A stretch of 64,000 nucleotides of DNA from Methanomassiliicoccales archaeon (GTDB lineage: Archaea > Thermoplasmatota > Thermoplasmata > Methanomassiliicoccales > UBA472), in the NCBI GenBank assembly GCA_040768245.1, contig JAXGNA010000008.1:1812-65811 (forward strand), in the 5' to 3' direction. Position numbers and translations under genes: made by a program. Positions 5,439 through 45,634 of the stretch are shown one piece after another. The notes below the pieces were generated by a model that was not told the origin of the DNA, searched no databases, and saw nothing but the letters and a program-made list of their open reading frames with translations. Numbering within the stretch: the first letter of the stretch is position 1; each line of letters begins with the position of its first letter.

Positions 5439-6308
5439 ATGCGTCTGCTTGTGGCGAGCCTCCCTGACCCAGCGAGCGTGAACCTTCGCGATCGCCTTCT
5501 GGAGGCGGCCGGGTGGTCCGAGGAAGGGGAATACCAAGGACGAAGGTGTTTCTGGTTGCGCGACATGCTGATGATCTCCGAGGACCAGCTTCACCTGCAT
5601 CTAGATCATGTCGACCGGACGATAGGGGAGACGCTCGGTGTCCAGATCGATGAGGTCGTCTTCCTCTCCAAGCACCGTGCCGCATCCGGGAAACCTACCT
5701 TGACCGTACATCCTATCGGCAACTTCGGAAAGGCCGATTACGGCGGCCGGGAAGGAGCGCTCGTTCCTGCCTCCCCATCATTCCTGAGCGGGTTGCTCAG
5801 GACGCTTGCATCAACCGCCAGAGGATTGCCGTTCGAGGTCTCTTACGAGGTGACCCACCATGGACCTTACCTGGAGGTCCCGACCACTTACGTGGAGATA
5901 GGCAGCGACGAGACCAAGTGGGGGAACCTGGAGGCGGCCAAGGCGATGGCGGAGGCCCTGCTGAGCTGGGCTCCGGCCGATGGGCCCACGGTGGTCGGCA
6001 TCGGTGGAGGGCATTACGCCCCTCGCTTCACCGAGGTCACCTTGGCCAAGAGAGTTTGTTTCGGCCATATGGTGGCCAAGCACGTTCTGGACGGAAGAAC
6101 GGACCAGGAGGTCCTGGATATCGTGCAGAAGGCCATGATGGCCTCGGGGACCAGGTCCGCGTACGTTCATAAGAAATCGTTCTCGCGACCGGAGGCAAGA
6201 CGCCTCAGCGACCTGCTGACAGCGGCAGGGTACCAAGTGCTGGAGGGTAGTGACCTGGAGGACCTTCAGAGCCTGCCGCGCTCCCTTTCGTCGGAGAGCA
6301 CCGCGTAA
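5439..6308 (+). CDS. dtdA: D-aminoacyl-tRNA deacylase, archaeal DTD2 type
   Basis: 289 aa. 'TLTVHPIGNFGKADYGG' and 'EVTHHGPYLEVPTTYVEIGSDE' match the tRNA_deacylase (PF04414) family. Confidence 0.82.
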   Translation: MRLLVASLPDPASVNLRDRLLEAAGWSEEGEYQGRRCFWLRDMLMISEDQLHLHLDHVDRTIGETLGVQIDEVVFLSKHRAASGKPTLTVHPIGNFGKADYGGREGALVPASPSFLSGLLRTLASTARGLPFEVSYEVTHHGPYLEVPTTYVEIGSDETKWGNLEAAKAMAEALLSWAPADGPTVVGIGGGHYAPRFTEVTLAKRVCFGHMVAKHVLDGRTDQEVLDIVQKAMMASGTRSAYVHKKSFSRPEARRLSDLLTAAGYQVLEGSDLEDLQSLPRSLSSESTA

Positions 6309-7013: not shown

Positions 7014-7703
7014 CTAATCTGAAACCACCGTCCCTTTGATGGGCTTGCCCTCGATGGCCGCCCTCATCTCGTCCAGGTCACGACCGTCCACGATGCATAT
7101 GTCGATGTGGCTGTCCCTAGCGATCTGCGCCCCCAGCCGATCGAAGACATTGGAAGGCCCGGCCCCGTGCAGACCGACGTTCACCAGCTCGTACAGCTGC
7201 TGATGGGTTATCTTTGACAGGCGTTCCGCCTTGGGGTCTTTGCGAGGGTCGGCGGTGTAGGCCGCGTCCACCGAGGTCCCGTTGATGATCCGGGCTGCCC
7301 TGACCTCCTTGGCCAGCATGGCGGATACCGCGTCGGTGGTGTGCCCTGGTACCGTCCCGCCCATGACCACCACCTTGCCCTTCCTCTCCAGCCGGTGCGC
7401 CTCCAGGATGTCGGTGGGCACCTTCCCGATGGTTTTGTCGCCTAGGGAGTACGCCACCAGGGTGGCGTTGATGCGGGTCGATAGGATCCCCATCTCGTCC
7501 AGGTCCGGCTCCGGGATCCTTAGGTTCCTTCCGACCTTGATGTAGTAGCGGGCGATCTTCCCGCCGCCGCAGACCAGGTATATCTGGTATCGGTCGCAGA
7601 GGGTTGAGATCATCTCAGAGAATCGCTTCAGGAACACGTCGTCGTTGTCATCTGGCACGATGACCGATCCACCGAGAGAGACCACTACCTTGTCCATTTG
7701 CAT
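7014..7703 (-). CDS. pyrH: uridylate (UMP) kinase, archaeal type
   Basis: 229 aa. 'VVSLGGSVI', 'VCGGGKIAR' and 'VVVMGGTVPGHTTD' fit the amino-acid-kinase fold at archaeal PyrH length. Confidence 0.88.
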   Translation of the reverse strand: MQMDKVVVSLGGSVIVPDDNDDVFLKRFSEMISTLCDRYQIYLVCGGGKIARYYIKVGRNLRIPEPDLDEMGILSTRINATLVAYSLGDKTIGKVPTDILEAHRLERKGKVVVMGGTVPGHTTDAVSAMLAKEVRAARIINGTSVDAAYTADPRKDPKAERLSKITHQQLYELVNVGLHGAGPSNVFDRLGAQIARDSHIDICIVDGRDLDEMRAAIEGKPIKGTVVSD

Positions 7704-18985: not shown

Positions 18986-18994
18986 GATAAGGAG

Positions 18995-19067
18995 TAGCCC
19001 CGGGCAGATTCGAACTGCCGTCGCAGGATCCAGAGTCCCGCATGATTGACCGCTACACTACGGGGCT
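18995..19067 (-). tRNA. tRNA-Gln (anticodon CUG)
   Basis: Reverse complement: AGCCCCG-TA-GTGTAGCGGTCAATCAT-G-CGGGA-CTCTGGA-TCCTG-CGAC-GGCAG-TTCGAAT-CTGCC-CGGGGCT-A. Acceptor and T arms pair perfectly. The anticodon loop is C-U-CUG-G-A. CCA is not encoded. Confidence 0.85.
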
Positions 19068-20949: not shown

Positions 20950-21033
20950 GCAGGGGTAGCCAAGCCTGGCCAACGGCGCTAGATTCAGGGTCTAGTCCTT
21001 AGTGGTCCGAGGGTTCAAATCCCTTCCCCTGCA
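20950..21033 (+). tRNA. tRNA-Leu (anticodon CAG)
   Basis: GCAGGGG-TA-GCCAAGCCTGGCCAACGGC-G-CTAGA-TTCAGGG-TCTAG-(long variable arm)-GAGGG-TTCAAAT-CCCTT-CCCCTGC-A. The long variable arm is typical of a class II tRNA. A T-run (CTTTTT) follows. Confidence 0.85.
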
Positions 21034-21063
21034 CTTTTTCCCCTTCTTGACATCGTGGTCCCA

Positions 21064-30973: not shown

Positions 30974-31612
30974 CTACTTTATCTGCCTGTCGTGGGCCTT
31001 GACGGACGGGCGCGCCTTCTCCGCACCCTTGCCCTTCCAGTGCAGCCCGCGTCCCTTGCGCCCGGCGGAGGTCTTGCCGCGGAAGACCCTGTTCTTGTTG
31101 GCGTTGTCGCACAGCCAGTTCAGGTTCTTGTCCGCCTTGATGGAGGGGTGGTGCTTGTCCACCAGGATGACCTCGTACCAGACGTTCTTGCCGTCCTCGC
31201 CGACCCAGTAGGAGTTGAGCACCTCGAGGTTGGGGTAGCGCTTGGCGGCCCTCTCCTCGGCGATCCGCTTCAGGCTCTTGCCCATGGTGATCTTCTTCAT
31301 ACCCTCGCGCTTGGCACGGCGTCCCTTGTATCCCATGCGCTTCTGCAGTCCGCCCTTGCGGACGTGGCCGCGGACCACGATGATCCCCTGCTTGGCCTTG
31401 TAGCCCAGAGCGCGGGCGCGGTCCAGACGGGTGGGCCTCTCCAGGCGGCAGAAGTTGGGCTCCCGCCTCCAGAGTATGAGCCTCTCCCACATCAGTCCCT
31501 TAACGTAAGAAGCATCGGGCCGGTCCCAGGCGTCGGAGATGTAGGAGTACATGCTCTTTCCGTTCACTGGCCTGGGCCCTTCCTCGTTATCGTCGACCTT
31601 TTTGTCTACCAT
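30974..31612 (-). CDS. rpl15e: 50S ribosomal protein L15e
   Basis: 'YSYISDAW', '[33 protein letters not shown]' and '[11 protein letters not shown]' are colinear with archaeal L15e. ATG 31612 is preceded by GGTGAT (anti-SD match) at 4 nt. Alternatives are GTG 31621 and ATG 31552 ('MYSYISD'). Confidence 0.9.
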
Positions 31613-31701
31613 TTGTATCACCAGTGCCGCCGTTGGCGGCGCTTCGGGATTCGCCCCTTGCGGGGTACAACTCCGGCGAGACTTGTCTCGCTACGAAGCC
31701 C
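31613..31701 (-). ncRNA. structured 5' leader or small RNA upstream of rpl15e (4 helices)
   Basis: Minus-strand sequence: GGGCTTCG-TA-GCGAGA(CAAG)TCTCGC-CGGAGTTGTA-CCCC(GCAA)GGGG-CGAATC-CGAAGC-GCCGCC(AAC)GGCGGC. A 6-bp closing helix encloses two hairpins, one with a GNRA loop. A fourth 6-bp hairpin abuts the SD. It begins about 20-25 nt downstream of a TTTAAATA box. Confidence 0.35.
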
Positions 31702-31717
31702 ACAGATAATGTAGCCC

Positions 31718-31725
31718 TATTTAAA
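31718..31725 (-). promoter_or_regulatory. putative TATA box (TTTAAATA) for the rpl15e transcript
   Basis: A consensus-like archaeal TATA element on the minus strand, about 20-25 nt upstream of the first base of the structured leader. Confidence 0.4.
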
Positions 31726-31872
31726 CGATATGATTTACGAATGGGATGGATGATGATTTAATTAATGAGTTTCGATTACGGCCATCCGATAGATATATAT
31801 TCTTTGTAATGTTTTGAAGAATTGGATTCGGTCCCTCACCAGGCATCGTTTCCGCATGTATCGCACTATGGT

Positions 31873-33054
31873 TTATTTGTCTTGTAAACTTTTTATTTTC
31901 TTCCTTAGATCTTTAGCCTTGATCATTTCGATATCGAAACCATCGGCCAAGGTCTGAGCGACCTTCTTGGAATTGTCACCCATATAGACCAACACGTCTC
32001 CATCTCGCACCTTATCACTGTCCGAGAAACGATCGTAGAACTGAACGCAACCTCCCAGCCTCTCAGCGTATATTAGAGCCGCATGGAACGGATCTTGGTA
32101 TTGGACCGTTTTGGAAAACTTTTTCGATATTGGCACGGAAGGGGCTGGCGACGGTCCGTCCATGACATGAGGTTCAGCGATGGGGATCTTTTCAAGCTGA
32201 TCAACCAGGAAGAAGACGATCGGCCTTGCCATGAAGGACGTGGTATCAATCAACTGGTCATCATACCATGTGAATTTTGTAAGGACCTTGTGGTCCAAGA
32301 ATCGACAATCGGTCTTGAAGCTACAGTCCTCCCACACCTCGTGAACATTGTCTGGTCGCAATCCTCTGTAGAGCATTGGATCTGTGGCCGGCCCTGGTTT
32401 CCTATGATAGAGCCTTGTATCGGTAAGGAAGGCGATCATGTCGGAGATGGATATGAATGGATTGCACTCATCACCATGAGAAAAAATGGTGGGCGAGCAT
32501 TTTGATGAAAGCTCATCCCAGGCGATGGTGTTCTTGGACCTGAAACCATCTATCATGAGCTCATATTCCTCTCCGTCCTTTCTCCTCATATAGTTCCAAG
32601 CGGAGATGTACGAGAACATCGGTCCTAGAGATCGCACGAATTCCTCCGTCCTCAGATTGACGAGCGGACATCTGGAACCGCCGACCTTGACCTCAGGCCT
32701 ATCTTTTGGAGGAAGAACGACATAGGAGACATGGATGGATTCGATCTGATCTTGGATCGCATCGATCAGCTTATTAGAATAAGCGATCGCTTTACTCATG
32801 TTCAGATCTTTCTTTAATTGATTAGAGGATAGGAATCGTAGTTCGTTCGAGATTTCGAACTCTTTTTTCAACACCCCATTGGTGGATAAAAATTCCTCCT
32901 GGAACCCATCAGCGTCCTTGAAGGTCACCCCGACACCTAATGGAGAGAAGAAACCCCTGTATCTCTTCTCGACCGAGCTAGGATCTGACCGATCGACCCT
33001 TTGTTCAACTCTGGACCTGTTGAAGTCCTTGGCATCGAAGGCCACTACCTTCAT
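31873..33054 (-). CDS. orphan hypothetical protein (393 aa) in an AT-rich island; weak DUF3800-like motif layout
   Basis: Long intact ORF whose G+C is clearly lower than its neighbours. Start is 'MKVVAFDAKDF' at ATG 33054; the track uses GTG 33069. The motif order 'VVAFDAKD' ... 'IHVSYVVLP' ... 'ELMIDGFRS' ... 'SHGDECNPFISISDMIAFL' resembles DUF3800. That comparison is from memory, not a search. Confidence 0.7.
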   Translation of the reverse strand: MKVVAFDAKDFNRSRVEQRVDRSDPSSVEKRYRGFFSPLGVGVTFKDADGFQEEFLSTNGVLKKEFEISNELRFLSSNQLKKDLNMSKAIAYSNKLIDAIQDQIESIHVSYVVLPPKDRPEVKVGGSRCPLVNLRTEEFVRSLGPMFSYISAWNYMRRKDGEEYELMIDGFRSKNTIAWDELSSKCSPTIFSHGDECNPFISISDMIAFLTDTRLYHRKPGPATDPMLYRGLRPDNVHEVWEDCSFKTDCRFLDHKVLTKFTWYDDQLIDTTSFMARPIVFFLVDQLEKIPIAEPHVMDGPSPAPSVPISKKFSKTVQYQDPFHAALIYAERLGGCVQFYDRFSDSDKVRDGDVLVYMGDNSKKVAQTLADGFDIEMIKAKDLRKKIKSLQDK

Positions 33055-33075
33055 GGCGTTTTGATGCACATCAAG

Positions 33076-33086
33076 ATATATTATTT
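33076..33086 (-). promoter_or_regulatory. putative TATA box (AAATAATATAT) for the orphan gene, leaderless geometry
   Basis: Centred about 27 nt upstream of ATG 33054, in the 55-nt gap after the polB stop. The spacing fits transcription starting at or next to the start codon. Confidence 0.4.
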
Positions 33087-33109
33087 CATCTCATAGAATT
33101 AATCGGGGC

Positions 33110-35545
33110 TCACATGAAGTCATCAAGTGACAGCTTCTTGTCGGTCTTCCTGACCTGCTCCAGATTGATCTTCGGCCTATCCTCCTCAGGACCATAATCG
33201 AACAGGTTGGCCTGCTGGTTGCCGTTCAGCAGGTCCTTCTCCCCCCAGCCGAAGACCTCCGTGGCCCGGGAGAGCGTCTGCGCCAGGCGCTCCGCGTAAT
33301 ATCGGTAATCGGGAGCATAGGTGAACTCCTGCCCGGAGATGTACGGCTGAACCTCCTGCGGCTTCCTACGGAAGTTGGTGACTATCCAAGAAACCTTCAT
33401 CCCCGGCACGAACTCGTAGCCCATCTCCATCAGCTTCTTGGCCGTCTGCACCGTGGCCTGGGCGTCCGGGTTGGCGTATTCGTTGAACTTGCGGCAGCCC
33501 TTGGAGATTACCAGCTTTTCCAATGGGACCTTGCCGGCCAGGGTGTCCTGGACGTAGCTGCGGGCGGCCTTCACCGCCTCGTCGGTCTTGCCGTCCATGA
33601 TGAACTCGAAGACGGTCATGAGCGACTCGGACTGCAGGTCGAAGGAATCGGTGCGGCGCACCTCGTAGCCGCGGATGATCAGCTCCTCCTTGGGCCAGAC
33701 CATTCGGCCCACGTAACGCTTCTTCTTGCCGTGCGAGAACAGTGGCTCCATGATCTTCTCGAACTCCAGGGAGCCGCCCTCCTTGGAGAAGCGTGTGGCC
33801 AGCTCCTTTCCGAAGCTCAGGGAACCCTCCAGGTTCTCATGGGGCGATTGGACGAAGACCGAGTCGGTGTCCGAATAGATCACGTTCACCCCTTCGTCCG
33901 ACAGCGATTTGATGATGCCCTTGGTGGTCTCCCTGGCGAAGGCGGTTATGCTTCCCCCGATGGAGCGGTCGGTGAAGCGGTAGAAGGAGGAGGCGAACAC
34001 CCCGTAGAAGGAGTTCATGAGGATCTTGATGGCCCCCTGCAATCCGTCGTAATAGTGCGCCTCCTCGGGGTCCTTGGCCTTCTTGGCCAAGGCCTTGGTC
34101 TCATCCCTCCGACGCATCAGGTCGGACAGGATGGAGGGCAGTATTCCAGGCTGCTGTTCCTTGCTCAGGAAGTGCACCCCCAGCGGGGACACGATGGTGC
34201 CGCGATCATCGCGGGTGGTGAAGCAGATGTTCCTGGATATGATCAGGCTGGGGTACATGGACTTGAAGTCCAGGACGCAGACCCAGTGGTACACGCCCGG
34301 GGATATCTCGTGGACGTAACCACCCTCGATGGCGTTCTCCTCATCATCGTCATAGTTGCCGGTGAGCGGAACGGCGACCTGCGGCGCGTGGCGATCGGCG
34401 GCGCGGATCATGATGGCGTCAATTAGCTGAGAGGAACCGGAGTTCAGCACATCGTCCACCGGCATGCGGGACACCGCGGCCAGGTCCATCCCCTTCCGGA
34501 TGCGACCGACCTTGCCCAGTATCTTTAGTGCCAGCTCGGCGTCGCGCGTGCAGTAGGCCAGCACCTTGTCGCGGTTGTTGAGCCATTCCTTGTCTATGGC
34601 CCGGGGATCGTAATCCTCCCCGACCTTCATCTTCATGTCCACGTCCAGCTTCTCCTCGCCCAGGAGCGATTTGGAGACGGCGTTCAACGTTTCCTGTTTT
34701 GGCTTGATCTCGATCTTGACCGCCCACCAGGCGTCCGCTATCAATCGACCGGTGCAGCGCCAGAACTTGTTCATGACCCGGCGGGGATTGGAGCGGTCGC
34801 GGCCCCACTTCAGCTCGTCGATGCCGTACTTTTTGGCACGCTCCATGATGAACGGGATGTCGTAACCGTCGATGTTGTAGCCGGTGATGACGTCGGGGTC
34901 CTCCATCTGGATGACCTCGGTGAACCTTTCGATCATCTCCTTCTCCGTACCGACCACGGGCTCGCCGGCCCTCACCCCCGATTCGTCCTTGATCACGTAG
35001 CAGATGGTGTAGATCGTCTCGTCGGTGATGGAGTTCTCGATGTCGAAGCTCAGGATCTTGAGCTTGGGGGTGAAAGGAGGTATCTCGGTGAAGCCACGAA
35101 GGTTCACGACCAGATCGGTGGTGTAGTCGCCCTTTATCTCCTCACCGCGGGCGGTGAAGCAGGCCGGCAGGTCGTTGTCGTAAATGAAGCGGTGGTGGAA
35201 CGGTATGTCGGCGGCGAAGACCTCCATCCCCTGGCGCTTGAGCTCGCTGCGGTACTGCGGCACGGCCCAGGGGAACTTGATGATGACCTTGGAGCATTTC
35301 TGGACCCGGCCCTTGTTGATCAGGAAGAGGTCCACCGGCTCGATGCCCAGGAAATCATCCTTGCCCTGGACGTAAGGCAGCACGTCCTCCGGAGGGGCGG
35401 CCACGTGGAAATATGGACGGAAGCCGGTCTTGCGCAGGGTGATCGATCTGCCGTCACGGGTCTTGCCGAACAGCTCGACCACTATGCCATCATTATCTCC
35501 CCTCGAATAGGAGGCGGTCAGAAGCCGAACGTCCCATTCACCCAT
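33110..35545 (-). CDS. polB: family B DNA polymerase (replicative PolB)
   Basis: 811 aa. Exo I 'LSFDIEN', Pol motif A 'DFKSMYPSLII', motif B 'KILMNSFYGV', motif C 'YSDTDSVFV'. Confidence 0.95.
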   Translation of the reverse strand: MGEWDVRLLTASYSRGDNDGIVVELFGKTRDGRSITLRKTGFRPYFHVAAPPEDVLPYVQGKDDFLGIEPVDLFLINKGRVQKCSKVIIKFPWAVPQYRSELKRQGMEVFAADIPFHHRFIYDNDLPACFTARGEEIKGDYTTDLVVNLRGFTEIPPFTPKLKILSFDIENSITDETIYTICYVIKDESGVRAGEPVVGTEKEMIERFTEVIQMEDPDVITGYNIDGYDIPFIMERAKKYGIDELKWGRDRSNPRRVMNKFWRCTGRLIADAWWAVKIEIKPKQETLNAVSKSLLGEEKLDVDMKMKVGEDYDPRAIDKEWLNNRDKVLAYCTRDAELALKILGKVGRIRKGMDLAAVSRMPVDDVLNSGSSQLIDAIMIRAADRHAPQVAVPLTGNYDDDEENAIEGGYVHEISPGVYHWVCVLDFKSMYPSLIISRNICFTTRDDRGTIVSPLGVHFLSKEQQPGILPSILSDLMRRRDETKALAKKAKDPEEAHYYDGLQGAIKILMNSFYGVFASSFYRFTDRSIGGSITAFARETTKGIIKSLSDEGVNVIYSDTDSVFVQSPHENLEGSLSFGKELATRFSKEGGSLEFEKIMEPLFSHGKKKRYVGRMVWPKEELIIRGYEVRRTDSFDLQSESLMTVFEFIMDGKTDEAVKAARSYVQDTLAGKVPLEKLVISKGCRKFNEYANPDAQATVQTAKKLMEMGYEFVPGMKVSWIVTNFRRKPQEVQPYISGQEFTYAPDYRYYAERLAQTLSRATEVFGWGEKDLLNGNQQANLFDYGPEEDRPKINLEQVRKTDKKLSLDDFM

Positions 35546-35547
35546 GT

Positions 35548-36771
35548 CTACCTCTTCGCCACTATGGTCATCACGTCCTCGTTCTCCAGCAGGTGGTCGT
35601 GGCCGACCACGCGGTGGGTGCGGGCGTTGATGGCCCGGATGAAATTGTCGCCCAGGTCGGTATGCACCTTGTAGGCCAGGTCCTTGGCGTTGCTCCCCTT
35701 TTTCAGGAGGAAGGCATCCGGGAGCACCCGGCCGTCATGATCGGTGAGGTGGGTCTCATCCTCCACCGGATAGACCACGATCTGGTCGAGCAGACGATAG
35801 GTCACCGTCTCCAGGCACTTCTGGACCCCGGTACCGTCGTACCTGGCCATGATCTGGGCCATGAAGTCCAGGGCCTTCCTCTGATTGGGGTTCAGCTTGC
35901 CGGGGTCGTTGACCTTGAAGTCCTTGTCGCCCGGCACGTAGGTCACCAGTCCGGCCTTGGCCGCCCGGCGCAACGCCAGTTCCGTCTCCGCGCAGGTCGG
36001 TACGGTCAGGTATCCCTCCAGCTCACTTAACCTTTTCATGATCCCGGGGTCCGCCGCGTCCGCCTTGTTGAGGGCGATGATCATGGGCTTGCTGAGCATC
36101 CGGATGTTCGCCGCCAGACGGTAGAGGTCCTCGTCCTTCCAGTCTATGATCTTGTGCGGCATCTCCGATGAACGGAGGGCGGCGGACACCTGGGCCTCGG
36201 TCACTCCAAGCCCGGTGAGCCGGTCATGGATGACCAGCTCGATCTTCTGCCCCTCCAGGTGCGCTCCCCGGGCCAGCTTGTCGAACCCCTTCATCATGAT
36301 GCCTTTGATCCACTGGTTGATCTCCCTCTCCAGGAACCTCAGGTCCTCCGCCGGGTCGTGGCTTCCCGGTTTGACGGCGTTCCCCTCGGCGTCGGTGGAG
36401 CCGCTGGCGTCCACGACGTGGATGAACGCGTCCGCCTGGCGCAGGTCGTCCAGGAACTGGTTTCCCAGACCCTTGCCCTGGCAGGCGTCCGGCACCAGCC
36501 CGGCCACGTCCAGAAGCTCGATGGGCACCAGCCGCACCCCGTTCTCGCAGGCCGAGTTTCGGGGGTTGCACTTGACATTGAAGTCCAGGTGCGGGCACTT
36601 GGAGCGGACGTAACCCATGCCCTTGTTCGGCTTTATGGTGGTGAACGGGTAGTTCGCTATCTCCGCGGTGGCCATGGTGGCCGCGGAGAAGAAGGTTGAC
36701 TTCCCGACATTGGGCTTGCCGACGATTCCGATCAACATTGTATTCCCTACTCCATGCAGTTCCTTGGACAA
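35548..36771 (-). CDS. ychF: Obg-family P-loop NTPase, YchF/OLA1-like with C-terminal TGS domain
   Basis: 407 aa. G1 'IGIVGKPNVGKSTFFSA', G3 'LLDVAGLV', G4 'ALNKAD'. TGS-like C-terminus '...RVVGHDHLLENEDVMTIV'. The stop lies 2 nt before the polB start. Confidence 0.85.
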   Translation of the reverse strand: MSKELHGVGNTMLIGIVGKPNVGKSTFFSAATMATAEIANYPFTTIKPNKGMGYVRSKCPHLDFNVKCNPRNSACENGVRLVPIELLDVAGLVPDACQGKGLGNQFLDDLRQADAFIHVVDASGSTDAEGNAVKPGSHDPAEDLRFLEREINQWIKGIMMKGFDKLARGAHLEGQKIELVIHDRLTGLGVTEAQVSAALRSSEMPHKIIDWKDEDLYRLAANIRMLSKPMIIALNKADAADPGIMKRLSELEGYLTVPTCAETELALRRAAKAGLVTYVPGDKDFKVNDPGKLNPNQRKALDFMAQIMARYDGTGVQKCLETVTYRLLDQIVVYPVEDETHLTDHDGRVLPDAFLLKKGSNAKDLAYKVHTDLGDNFIRAINARTHRVVGHDHLLENEDVMTIVAKR

Positions 36772-36862
36772 TAGCGTTTCCCATTATTACGTTTCGATAG
36801 ACCTACCATAATCATTAAGGACGAAATTTCGGGATACCCTTAACGAGGTATCCCGGTCGACC

Positions 36863-38305
36863 ATGCCCGAAGAAACCGCCAGGGACGAATCTACCGATGG
36901 CGAGGGGACGATGCTTGATATCACCAGCGAGTCCACGCTCCGTTCCCTTTCCAAAGCGGTGGAGAACAGCCCGGTGACCATAGTCATAACCGACACCCAG
37001 GGAAGGATAGAGTACGTCAATCCGAAGTTCACCTCCCTGACCGGGTATACCAGGGAAGAGGTGATAGGTAAGAACCCCAGCATCCTCTCTTCCGGGCAGA
37101 ACCCTCGGGAGCTTTATGCTGAGCTGTGGAGCACCATCACCTCTGGGCGGACCTGGAGGGGAGAGTTCTCCAACCGCAAGAAGAACGGTGAGCTGTACTG
37201 GGAGTCCGCGTCCATCTCCCCCATCGCTGACGATGACGGCGAGATAGTGAAGTTCGTGGCGGTCAAGGAGGACATCACCAAGGCCAAGGCCCTGGCCGAG
37301 CTGAACACCTCCCTCTCGGACATGGTGACCATGGCCACCAACGAGATCTACTCGTTCGATTACCACACCCTCAAGTTCATCTATGTCAACCGTTCCGCCC
37401 TGCGGAACCTGGGATACAGCATGGCAGAGATGCGTGAGATGACCCCGCTGGACCTGAAGGACGCCATGCCCCGCGAGGCCTTCGATGCTTTGCTGGAAAA
37501 GCTGAGGTCGGGAGGGGAGCTGGTGCAGTTCGAGACCGAGCACCGCCGGAAGGACGGTACCCGGTATCCGGTCGAGGTGCACCTTCAGGTGGTGGGCCCC
37601 AACGAGGAAAAACGCTTTTTGGCGATCATCATAGACATCACCTACCGGCGGCGGATGGAGGCCGACCTGCGGCGCCTGAACGAGAAGGCGAAGGTGCTCG
37701 GCGCCCTGACCAGGCACGACATAATGAACCAGATAACCGTGCTGCTGGGCAACCTTGACCTCATGAGGGGGAAGGTGTCCGGGAACGAGGAGAGGAGGGT
37801 GGCCACCATGAGGAGCGCCGCCCGGAAGATCGAGGTGTACCTGGAGTTCACCGCGGCCTTCGAGAGGACCGGCAGCGTATCACCGGAATGGCAGGACCTG
37901 ACCGAGGTGGTCAAGGGATCCTGGGGAGGATACGGAGGAGGCCCTATCGAAGTGGAGATGGACCTGCCGAGGGTGAAGGTACTGGCCGATTCCATGTTCC
38001 CCAAGGTCTTCGATAATCTTTTCGCCAACTCCCTGGAGCACGCCCCGGGACTGAAGAGGATCGGGGTGACCTGTGAGGACAGGGGTGGCGATGGTCTTAT
38101 CATCTACACCGACGACGGCCCGGGGATACCGGACGATGTGCGCGCCAGCCTCTTCACCAAGCGGGAGGGGAGCACCCGCGGCCTCGGACTGTTCCTGATC
38201 AGCGAGGTGCTGAAGGCCACCGGGATGCGGATAGCCGAGAGGGGAGAGGCGGGGAAGGGGGTAAGGTTCGAGATCTCTGTCCCTTCGGGTAACTGGAAAC
38301 TTTGA
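36863..38305 (+). CDS. PAS-domain sensor histidine kinase
   Basis: 480 aa. Two PAS domains ('ITDTQGRIEYVNPKFTSLTGYTREEVIGKNP', 'YRRKDGTRYPVEVH'), H-box 'LTRHDIMNQITVL', and ATPase motifs 'DDGPGIP' and 'GLGLFLISEV'. No response regulator is adjacent. Confidence 0.85.
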   Translation: MPEETARDESTDGEGTMLDITSESTLRSLSKAVENSPVTIVITDTQGRIEYVNPKFTSLTGYTREEVIGKNPSILSSGQNPRELYAELWSTITSGRTWRGEFSNRKKNGELYWESASISPIADDDGEIVKFVAVKEDITKAKALAELNTSLSDMVTMATNEIYSFDYHTLKFIYVNRSALRNLGYSMAEMREMTPLDLKDAMPREAFDALLEKLRSGGELVQFETEHRRKDGTRYPVEVHLQVVGPNEEKRFLAIIIDITYRRRMEADLRRLNEKAKVLGALTRHDIMNQITVLLGNLDLMRGKVSGNEERRVATMRSAARKIEVYLEFTAAFERTGSVSPEWQDLTEVVKGSWGGYGGGPIEVEMDLPRVKVLADSMFPKVFDNLFANSLEHAPGLKRIGVTCEDRGGDGLIIYTDDGPGIPDDVRASLFTKREGSTRGLGLFLISEVLKATGMRIAERGEAGKGVRFEISVPSGNWKL

Positions 38306-45531: not shown

Positions 45532-45634
45532 GCTCCCGTAGTGTAGTCCGGCCAATCATTCCGCCCTTTCGACATCGCTGAAAGGCGGTGGAAGGTAGGC
45601 GAAGACCCGGGTTCGAATCCCGGCGGGAGCACCA
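45532..45634 (+). tRNA. tRNA-Glu (anticodon UUC) with ~25-nt intron in the anticodon loop; CCA encoded
   Basis: GCTCCCG-TA-GTGTAGTCCGGCCAATCAT-T-CCGCC-CTTTCG[intron]A-GGCGA-AGAC-CCGGG-TTCGAAT-CCCGG-CGGGAGC-A-CCA. The 5' half matches my memory of archaeal tRNA-Glu. The spliced length is 78 nt including CCA. A TTTTT run follows. Confidence 0.8.
45572..45596 (+). other. predicted tRNA intron (position 37/38)
   Basis: The insert ACATCGCTGAAAGGCGGTGGAAGGT lies between G37 and A38. The junction is ambiguous by 1 nt because an A flanks both sides. The insert contains GAAAGGCGG, complementary to exon CCGCC-CTTTC. Confidence 0.6.

Follow-up and report, generated by a model that had tools for sequence, protein, structure and literature searches.

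Between the family B DNA polymerase gene (polB) and the ribosomal protein L15e gene (rpl15e) of a Methanomassiliicoccales archaeon (GenBank assembly GCA_040768245.1, contig JAXGNA010000008.1), a 1384-bp segment of low GC content is inserted that carries a 393-residue member of the uncharacterised Pfam family DUF8203 and, convergent with it, a predicted small RNA gene of ~70 nt. The window analysed here is the 64,000-nucleotide stretch at contig positions 1,812 to 65,811 (forward strand), and window coordinates count from its first base. The inserted cassette as a whole spans 31726–33109 and has no strand of its own. The host gene polB (33110–35545, minus strand; identified by NCBIfam matches) forms its left flank, with the polB stop codon at 33110–33112. 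The other flank is rpl15e (NCBIfam), whose TATA box TTTAAATA (31718–31725, minus strand) is host sequence marking the right border; this box is kept directly before the rpl15e leader in the related loci L007, L124, and L129.

Composition and borders of the insertion

GC content is 0.41–0.51 across about 31650–33150, against 0.58–0.67 in the flanks. In 1182-nt windows over the 64 kb the mean is 0.600 (sd 0.026) with a minimum of 0.453 at about 31700, and 31726–33109 is the sole region below 0.52. The DUF8203 gene has a GC content of 0.472 and a third-codon-position GC content (GC3) of 0.571, compared with GC3 values of 0.86 for polB, 0.92 for rpl15e, 0.88 for the YchF-like GTPase gene, and 0.82 for ThiI. 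A first-pass annotation of the letters had picked out this segment as the clearest compositional anomaly in the window and proposed sliding-window GC as a check; both the windowed values and GC3 agree with it. A milder second dip (0.52) lies at 36600–37050, at the upstream end of the YchF-like GTPase gene.

The borders are given by the empty junction of locus L129, where 18 nt separate the polB stop codon from the rpl15e TATA box; projected onto the window, this site yields 31726–33109, exactly the coordinates reported in the first-pass annotation. That annotation also listed no tRNA, flanking repeats, or integrase, and the same holds here: there is no tRNA gene in or adjoining the insert (ARAGORN and Rfam), no known RNA between the DUF8203 gene and rpl15e (Rfam and ARAGORN), no integrase in the cassette, and no notable direct or inverted repeat flanking it.

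The DUF8203 gene and its family

The DUF8203 gene (31873–33054, minus strand) is a long, intact open reading frame, as first described, starting with the ATG at 33054 and ending with a stop codon at 31873–31875. A putative TATA-like promoter box, AAATAATATAT (33076–33086, minus strand), is centred 27 nt before the ATG, where the first reading of the sequence had placed it. The box is conserved in L007, and many homologous loci have one about 25–35 nt before the start codon, a spacing that suggests an mRNA with no leader or a very short one.

A hypothetical protein of a Methanomassiliicoccales archaeon from anaerobic digesters (P0001) has the same sequence as the window protein; P0001 and all 44+ homologues carry the precomputed PF26630 label, which assigns the window protein to DUF8203. 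It has no match in a Pfam copy lacking PF26630, in NCBIfam, in PHROGs, or in the PDB by sequence and profile, nor in PADLOC-DB 2.0, where 0 families match at E≤10; the proposed defence-database check thus returned nothing. The earlier statement that the protein belongs to no characterised family therefore stands, its sole label being an uncharacterised DUF, while the description of the gene as an orphan does not: in an exhaustive profile search the homologues, mostly of 335–395 aa, form at least 412 clusters at 50% identity (326 with E<1e-10), making DUF8203 a sizeable pan-archaeal family. A profile search of a word-indexed database with a broad alignment added no marginal families.

The distribution is almost entirely archaeal and patchy over phyla, with only 30 loci recovered in a pattern scan of 185,579 GTDB species. 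Carriers include Methanoperedens (the best GTDB match to the window protein, at 46% identity), Bathyarchaeia, Thermoplasmata, Methanomassiliicoccaceae, Methanomethylophilaceae, the DHVE2 group, Nitrosopumilaceae, Methanomethylicota, Thorarchaeota, and a single Zixibacteria metagenome-assembled genome (MAG). The copy in the Zixibacteria MAG (L041, 5992–7086) is 28% identical and retains a recognisable downstream motif; it reflects either inter-domain transfer or binning contamination.

Genomic contexts differ from locus to locus, and an all-against-all comparison of open reading frames over 37 loci identified no conserved partner gene. The contexts include the intervals from MCM to DUF424/NMD3 and from fibrillarin to rps15, a ParA-like neighbourhood, a region with methyltransferase, toxin-antitoxin, and AbiEii genes (L001), and one with SLFN_AlbA, DUF1156, and MmeI-like methyltransferase genes (L010). 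The last two look like defence or mobile-element islands, so that the suggestion to look for homologues in defence islands or viruses finds some support for islands; for viruses the answer is negative, with no copy in IMG/VR contigs. The MCM gene adjoining the DUF8203 copy of L004 (2196–5858) contains intein sequence. In five of six homologue loci, as in the window itself, the DUF8203 gene has a lower GC content than its host. Disrupted copies, in which the reading frame is broken, the N terminus truncated, or a stop codon placed internally, are present in L030 (3460–4622), L012 (5666–6948), and L039 (5363–6467). DUF8203 is an accessory, horizontally moving, stand-alone gene.

Predicted fold and candidate active site

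An AlphaFold2 model of the window protein built with a 44-sequence alignment has a pLDDT of 90.7 and a pTM of 0.88. Its N-terminal domain (residues about 1–230; 32365–33054, minus strand) is RNase HII-like with an RNase H fold, an assignment drawn from the model, Foldseek, and conserved residues D7, D169, D195, and D205. The top Foldseek matches in the PDB are Archaeoglobus fulgidus RNase HII, alone and in complex with PCNA (3p83/1i39; E about 0.01, probability 0.98, TM-score 0.46 normalised to target length, ~209 columns), followed more weakly by mouse RNase H2A; a Foldseek search of viral predicted structures gave no match. The structure search proposed in the first-pass annotation finds RNase HII as the best match, and the sequence searches no characterised family.

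Among 110 DUF8203 members down to 19% identity, D205 is invariant and D7, D169, D195, G194, F171, W179, P278, D345, and D353 are nearly so. By inspection, VVAFDAKD and LMIDGFRS of the window protein correspond to VAGVDEVG and VLIDGNRC of Escherichia coli RNase HII. Alignment with hhalign matches HGDECNPFISISDMIAFLTD, and the longer stretch IFSHGDECNPFISISDMIAFLTD, with the E. coli enzyme. Compared by sequence motif, D7, D169, and D195 occupy positions matching three of the four DEDD carboxylates of RNase HII; E196 and D205 are conserved nearby and are additional candidate carboxylates. The protein is probably an active metal-dependent nuclease of the RNase H2/DUF3800 fold type, because the modelled fold is RNase HII-like and four aspartates are near-invariant. 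No RNase HII family match was obtained by sequence in Pfam, NCBIfam, or PDB sequence and profile searches. No canonical rnhB was found in the collected locus DNA by tblastn with E. coli RNase HII, a search that is silent on the carriers' own RNase HII. The earlier, loose comparison with DUF3800 is upheld at the level of fold, the model resembling RNase HII and DUF3800 being described as RNase H2-like, and fails at the level of sequence membership.

The extra C-terminal part seen at first reading is confirmed and measures about 160 aa (residues 232–393; 31876–32361, minus strand). The models divide it into a small beta unit, a disordered linker (293–310), and an alpha/beta domain with a conserved DGDVxVYxG motif and the conserved D345 and D353. 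Modelled alone, these 162 residues reach a pLDDT of 82, and against the PDB they give solely non-significant Rossmann-like matches (RecR, BRCT, Ago MID, and receiver domains; E>0.3).

A conserved, predicted small RNA gene convergent with DUF8203

The 147 nt after the DUF8203 stop codon, described in the first-pass annotation as ~150 nt of AT-rich non-coding tail, are not empty and hold a predicted small RNA gene with its promoter. The first 40–110 nt past the stop are conserved across phyla, even in loci whose remaining flanking sequence differs. They contain a motif with a 7-bp covarying stem around an invariant core, reading ATGCC-N5–6-GGRAC on the gene strand, which is present in 97 of the 111 loci with enough downstream sequence, as 77 distinct sequences. 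On the strand opposite the gene these 77 sequences (alignment A5) form an 11-pair helix that is paired in 95.9% of cells, with compensatory changes at eight of the 11 pairs (186 cells). The covariation score is reached by 0 of 500 shuffles and register-shifted controls are at most 45% paired; RNAalifold predicts the same helix. Non-Watson-Crick cells on this strand comprise 102 G-U and about 21 A-C/C-A, and because G-U cells are in excess the RNA strand is taken to be the one opposite the gene. A hairpin on the gene strand, as part of a 3′ untranslated region (UTR) or terminator, was considered and rejected: there A-C mismatches outnumber G-U by about 3–5:1, and the promoter-like signal points the other way.

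In the window the small RNA is predicted to span 31824–31895 (plus strand), its ends placed by promoter spacing and a T5 run. It would begin with the conserved hairpin (GGAUUCG-GUCCC-UCACCA-GGCAU-CGUUUCC; 31824–31853, plus strand; from alignment A5 and RNAalifold), in which neither the core (CC...GGCAU) nor the loop nucleotides vary between phyla. Conserved GUA and UAAU motifs follow. The predicted fold consists of this 5′ hairpin and a 3′ hairpin followed by a U run. A putative promoter (CGATAG-ATATATAT; 31787–31800, plus strand) lies upstream on the strand opposite the gene. With the 77 loci aligned at the nucleotide that opens the stem, A/T content is 92–100% at positions −31 to −25 (consensus close to TTTAWATA), and an A-rich block lies just ahead, at −36 to −33; in loci of different phyla a reverse-oriented TATA stands 21–24 nt from the hairpin. 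The signal has the geometry of an archaeal B recognition element and TATA box (BRE/TATA), from which transcription would start at the conserved G that opens the stem or 1–2 nt before it. Archaeal transcription terminates at oligo-T, and the T5 run at 31890–31894 (plus strand), inside the Lys-rich C-terminal codons of the DUF8203 gene, is a candidate terminator; in 56 of the 77 loci a run of T5 or longer occurs beyond the aligned hairpin segment, the median distance being 25 nt. With these ends the RNA would be antisense to the DUF8203 3′ UTR, the stop codon, and the last 6–7 codons.

A covariance model of the motif (R1) gives 104 matches in about 0.95 Mb, one per locus beside almost every DUF8203 gene examined, all on the strand opposite the gene, shortly beyond its stop codon. 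The 64-kb window contains a single match (31816–31881, plus strand; 50.4 bits, E 1.2e-10). L030 and L012 keep the motif (36.6 and 48.7 bits) despite their disrupted genes. Rfam 15 returns only chance-level scores in the window region (13–18 bits against gathering thresholds of 43–80; E 3–7), none overlapping 31824–31853, and nothing at E≤1 in 20 other DUF8203 loci. This predicted convergent small RNA is newly recognised here, widely conserved, and absent from Rfam.

In four Nitrosopumilaceae loci (L032, L033, L036, and L038) the ~70 nt at or after the stop codon contain a shortened hairpin (GGUGCC-loop-GGCAUC, antisense strand) that the covariance model misses. It overlaps the stop codon, TAG, and TTTATATA stands about 24 nt upstream. 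Two other ideas about the hairpin were set aside. It lacks, by inspection, the tandem G-A pairs of a K-turn/L7Ae site, and a possible pairing of its core with codons 7–10 (GAUGCC..GGAC) in the window is not kept in FDSKD-type relatives and was judged coincidental.

Cargo turnover at the polB-rpl15e junction

The junction is variably occupied in related genomes. Besides L129, in which polB is 85.5% identical to that of the window, it is empty in L130/131 (polB 67% identical). In L007 and L124–L128 the polB proteins are 96–97% identical to the window's and the junction is filled: L007 has a DUF8203 gene, and in L124–L128 (5937–7960) this is replaced by a two-gene, low-GC (0.45) AbiL system comprising AbiLi (421 aa, E 2e-94) and AbiLii (211 aa, E 1.9e-22). 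The AbiL cargo is found on 23 contigs, including GCA_035340195.1. The R1 model has no match in either the AbiL or the empty junctions.

The DUF8203 proteins of the window and L007 are 77% identical, with synonymous differences saturated (pS 0.81) and a nonsynonymous divergence (dN) of 0.146, indicative of purifying selection on the protein. The synonymous divergence (dS) of the flanking genes is 0.51 for polB, 0.42 for YchF, and 0.19 for rpl15e, and nucleotide identity, 0.85–1.0 in the flanks, falls to about 0.63–0.88 inside the cassette; simple inheritance together with the flanks therefore does not account for the cassette. Its best-conserved part is the RNA region (0.85–0.87 identity). Three lineages with 96–97% identical polB thus hold two deeply diverged DUF8203 alleles and one AbiL system at the same site, and because of this the polB-rpl15e spacer is a cargo hotspot that exchanges its contents as defence hotspots do. 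These comparisons bear out the initial suggestion of horizontally acquired cargo, the proposed synteny test finding the gene variably present, empty sites, or AbiL in its place. The accompanying guess at a defence or abortive-infection function gains circumstantial support from the presence of AbiL in a sister lineage.

Repeats around the unit were recorded at two loci elsewhere. A 275-nt direct repeat (5629–5903 and 7424–7698; 91% identical) brackets gene, RNA, and promoter in L015, from an uncultured archaeon, and could be a trace of cassette integration. In L023, from a Bathyarchaeota genome, a 28-nt inverted repeat (5882–5909 and 7326–7353; 96% complementary) brackets the cassette; the left arm alone, CTGTTAAGTTATTTGACCC, is seen again ahead of the gene at several further Bathyarchaeia loci. 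Terminal inverted repeats and target-site duplications are absent from the window, L007, L004, L010, and L005, an inverted pair occurring in L023 alone. Terminal repeats as general transposon ends were rejected, being limited to L023 (inverted) and L015 (direct).

Flanking genes and other features of the window

The rpl15e region (31553–31725, minus strand) begins with the gene's own TATA box. Behind it comes a ~100-nt GC-rich leader containing three hairpins, in which a GGGG run can pair alternatively with an upstream CCCC or a downstream CCC around CGAAUCCC. The leader is 97–100% identical in L007 and L124 and conserved with a few compensatory changes in L129 and L130. It has no Rfam match and may be an undescribed archaeal ribosomal-protein leader. 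Several polB homologues of Methanomassiliicoccales (P0252, P0267, P0280, and others; 1200–1230 aa) contain inteins with an Intein_splicing domain; the window polB has none. Elsewhere in the window a tRNA-Gln(CTG) gene is called by both tools (18994–19067, minus strand) and a tRNA-Leu(CAG) gene by ARAGORN only (20950–21034, plus strand). A 100-nt Rfam tRNA match at 45532–45631 (plus strand), missed by ARAGORN, probably contains an intron.

A possible RNA-controlled nuclease module

We give even chances to the reading that the mobile DUF8203 nuclease and its antisense RNA constitute a toxin-antitoxin or defence-like module. The segment that separates the stop codon of polB from the promoter of rpl15e is a self-contained, horizontally mobile two-gene cassette. 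In this reading an abundant antisense RNA would restrain the nuclease in one or both of two ways: it would base-pair with the nuclease mRNA, or its invariant hairpin core would bind the nuclease itself. The hairpin may be recognised by a protein, most simply DUF8203 itself, because its invariant core is not needed for antisense pairing; the overlap with the mRNA would permit regulation of the message as well. If the RNA were lost, as might happen when a virus halts transcription in its host, the nuclease would be set free, and the same logic would make the cassette addictive and help it to persist after transfer. A more specific proposal is put forward tentatively and at somewhat short of even chances: that DUF8203 and the convergent hairpin RNA are an unrecognised pan-archaeal RNA-controlled nuclease module, an archaeal counterpart of the unexplained bacterial pairs of DUF3800 and noncoding RNA (ncRNA). 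The structured antisense RNA would serve an RNase H2-fold effector as its antitoxin or sensor, and the module would unite the logic of type I and type III systems in an abortive-infection type of immunity.

Several observations weigh against the toxin-antitoxin or defence-like module. The Foldseek agreement with RNase HII is modest in both TM-score and E-value, and the Glu of the RNase HII DE motif is replaced in DUF8203 (D-[AS]-K), which could alter or abolish catalysis. Of the six contexts viewed in detail, four are housekeeping neighbourhoods and not defence islands, the viral-contig scan recovered no DUF8203 copy from IMG/VR, and the family is unmatched in PADLOC and PHROGs. The transcription, ends, and abundance of the small RNA are predictions, and its G-U/A-C asymmetry and covariation are raw counts, uncorrected for phylogenetic relatedness. 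The pair also fits neither the type III definition (a tandem-repeat antitoxin) nor that of classical type I (a small membrane peptide; for a general definition see PMC6563280).

Two alternatives differ mainly in what the RNA motif does. DUF8203 could be a stand-alone defence or accessory nuclease whose RNA is a cis-antisense regulator, or a by-product of convergent transcription, neither binding the protein nor acting as antitoxin. Antisense geometry would suffice for the complementarity, and the hotspot and island contexts as well as the purifying selection on the protein suit such a defence gene. The invariant core and loop and the covarying stem, however, argue for a structure that is recognised and not for mere overlap, and the position of the RNA promoter is as conserved as the gene; we regard this explanation as unlikely, though a real contender. 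It is slightly less probable that the unit is a selfish element, with DUF8203 an RNase H-fold transposase or homing-type nuclease that mobilises its own gene and the hairpin a DNA recognition site or element end. In favour of this, a single-gene unit is inserted at many different sites, often beside conserved genes (polB, MCM, rps15), and lacks an integrase; alleles have been swapped at one site, the hairpin is close to an end of the unit, and repeats surround the unit in L023 and L015. Yet the window and most loci have neither terminal inverted repeats nor target duplications, there is usually one copy per locus or genome, and the top fold match is RNase HII and not a DDE transposase or integrase. 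The G-U excess and the promoter at fixed spacing likewise indicate an RNA and not a DNA site.

An RNA-guided or RNA-cofactor nuclease, with the small RNA loaded through its 5′ hairpin and directing DUF8203 to targets in the manner of OMEGA/TnpB or Argonaute, would account for the strict linkage of an RNase H-fold nuclease to a structured RNA with a hairpin at its extreme predicted 5′ end, and the associations of DUF3800 with ncRNAs are still unexplained (PMC5737381). Against this, what follows the hairpin in the RNA is dictated by the 3′ end of the gene that it overlaps and is fairly conserved, no variable guide segment is obvious, there are no arrays or transposon ends, and the weak fold match to an Ago MID domain is non-significant (E 3.1); we consider it improbable. 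A housekeeping RNase H paralogue that removes primers or ribonucleotides during replication would have an RNase HII-like fold and could be expected beside polB here and MCM in L004. Close relatives lack the gene at the same junction, however, and the few, patchy loci of the GTDB scan, the foreign composition, varied contexts, and pseudogenes, and the lack of an RNase HII sequence-family match all speak against it, so that this role is very improbable and largely excluded by the distribution data.

Significance

To our knowledge the defence and toxin-antitoxin systems of archaea have been mapped much less fully than those of bacteria, and hardly any archaeal system with an RNA antitoxin has been described. 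The cassette offers a compact (~1.4 kb) two-part candidate whose predicted features can be put to the test, namely the 70-nt RNA and its 5′ hairpin, the promoter, and four aspartates that are candidates for catalysis. The DUF8203 pair is also a handle on the puzzle of why RNase H2-like proteins of the DUF3800 type travel with structured RNAs, and the polB-rpl15e hotspot in this Methanomassiliicoccales lineage should be useful for finding more archaeal defence genes among its other occupants. Biotechnological interest is possible if the RNA proves to control or direct the nuclease.

Comparison with known systems

The protein family (as a DUF), the fold type, and the habit of RNase H2-like proteins to travel with ncRNAs (DUF3800) were known already. 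The DUF8203 protein resembles A. fulgidus RNase HII (1I39/3P83) in its hhhhD strand 1 (D7), its hhIDG motif (D169), and GD-x3-P-x-IS-x-A-x-I-x-A (D195). It differs in lacking both a sequence-family match and the Glu of the DE pair, in its conserved E196 and D205, long N-terminal beta hairpin, and C-terminal domains, and in being accessory, mobile, and patchy where RNase HII is universal.

OMEGA systems (TnpB/IscB) have a same-strand omega RNA with a guide at a transposon end, and TnpB contains RuvC and a zinc finger. They share with DUF8203 an RNase H-fold nuclease of ~400 aa and an ncRNA overlapping the 3′ end of the gene (predicted for DUF8203); the DUF8203 RNA, in contrast, is on the opposite strand, and the protein has no conserved Cys pairs and matches RNase HII in fold. 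AbiL (an AbiLi ATPase with AbiLii) resembles DUF8203 in occupying the same hotspot in a sister lineage as low-GC cargo, although the proteins are unrelated and the AbiL cargo has no RNA-model match.

In type III toxin-antitoxin systems (ToxIN), a tandem-repeat RNA neutralises an endoribonuclease by direct binding and has a role in abortive infection. The DUF8203 RNA would likewise neutralise a nuclease by direct binding, with a comparable role, but there is one RNA copy per locus and not a tandem array upstream of the toxin, the cassette containing no direct-repeat family beyond chance-level short two-copy matches; the nuclease fold is another and the RNA is on the opposite strand. Type I systems with a convergent, 3′-overlapping antisense RNA are exemplified by TxpA/RatA and BsrG/SR4. 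As in these, the protein and RNA genes here are convergent with overlapping 3′ ends (predicted), in a compact, horizontally mobile two-gene unit found in many contexts. Unlike them, DUF8203 is archaeal and a 393-aa soluble-looking protein of nuclease fold, not a small hydrophobic peptide, and its RNA has a sequence-invariant structured core that suggests recognition by protein.

DUF3800 (PF12686) is described as RNase H2-like, an RNase H fold with catalytic rearrangement (PMC7736814, PMC10910872), with an N-terminal DE and a C-terminal QxxD motif (PMC7736814). It is associated with 11 unrelated ncRNA motifs (DUF3800-I to -XI) on either strand and linked to retron type VII, Cas12a2/a3, and Cas13 loci (PMC5737381, PMC7736814, PMC10910872, PMC13594972, 10.64898/2026.08.25.746378). 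DUF8203 differs in several respects. The window protein is unmatched by the DUF3800 profile at E≤10 and only one of 110 DUF8203 members matches (E 0.047); its motifs are F-D-[AS]-K-[DE] and IS-x-A-D-I-I-A, with no Gln; it has the C-terminal region of about 160 aa and is almost entirely archaeal; and its RNA is unmatched in Rfam, also by such DUF3800 motifs as Rfam contains. The two families are nevertheless alike in having an RNase H2-like fold with a rearranged catalytic set (judged here through the Foldseek match to RNase HII and not from a DUF3800 structure), in a helix motif, hydrophobic-x-x-A-D-hydrophobic, after a conserved acidic residue, and in a tight linkage to structured ncRNA in mobile or defence contexts. 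UAA trinucleotides follow the hairpin here, as remarked for DUF3800 RNAs (PMC5737381). By analogy, these likenesses support an RNA-linked, conflict-related role for DUF8203.

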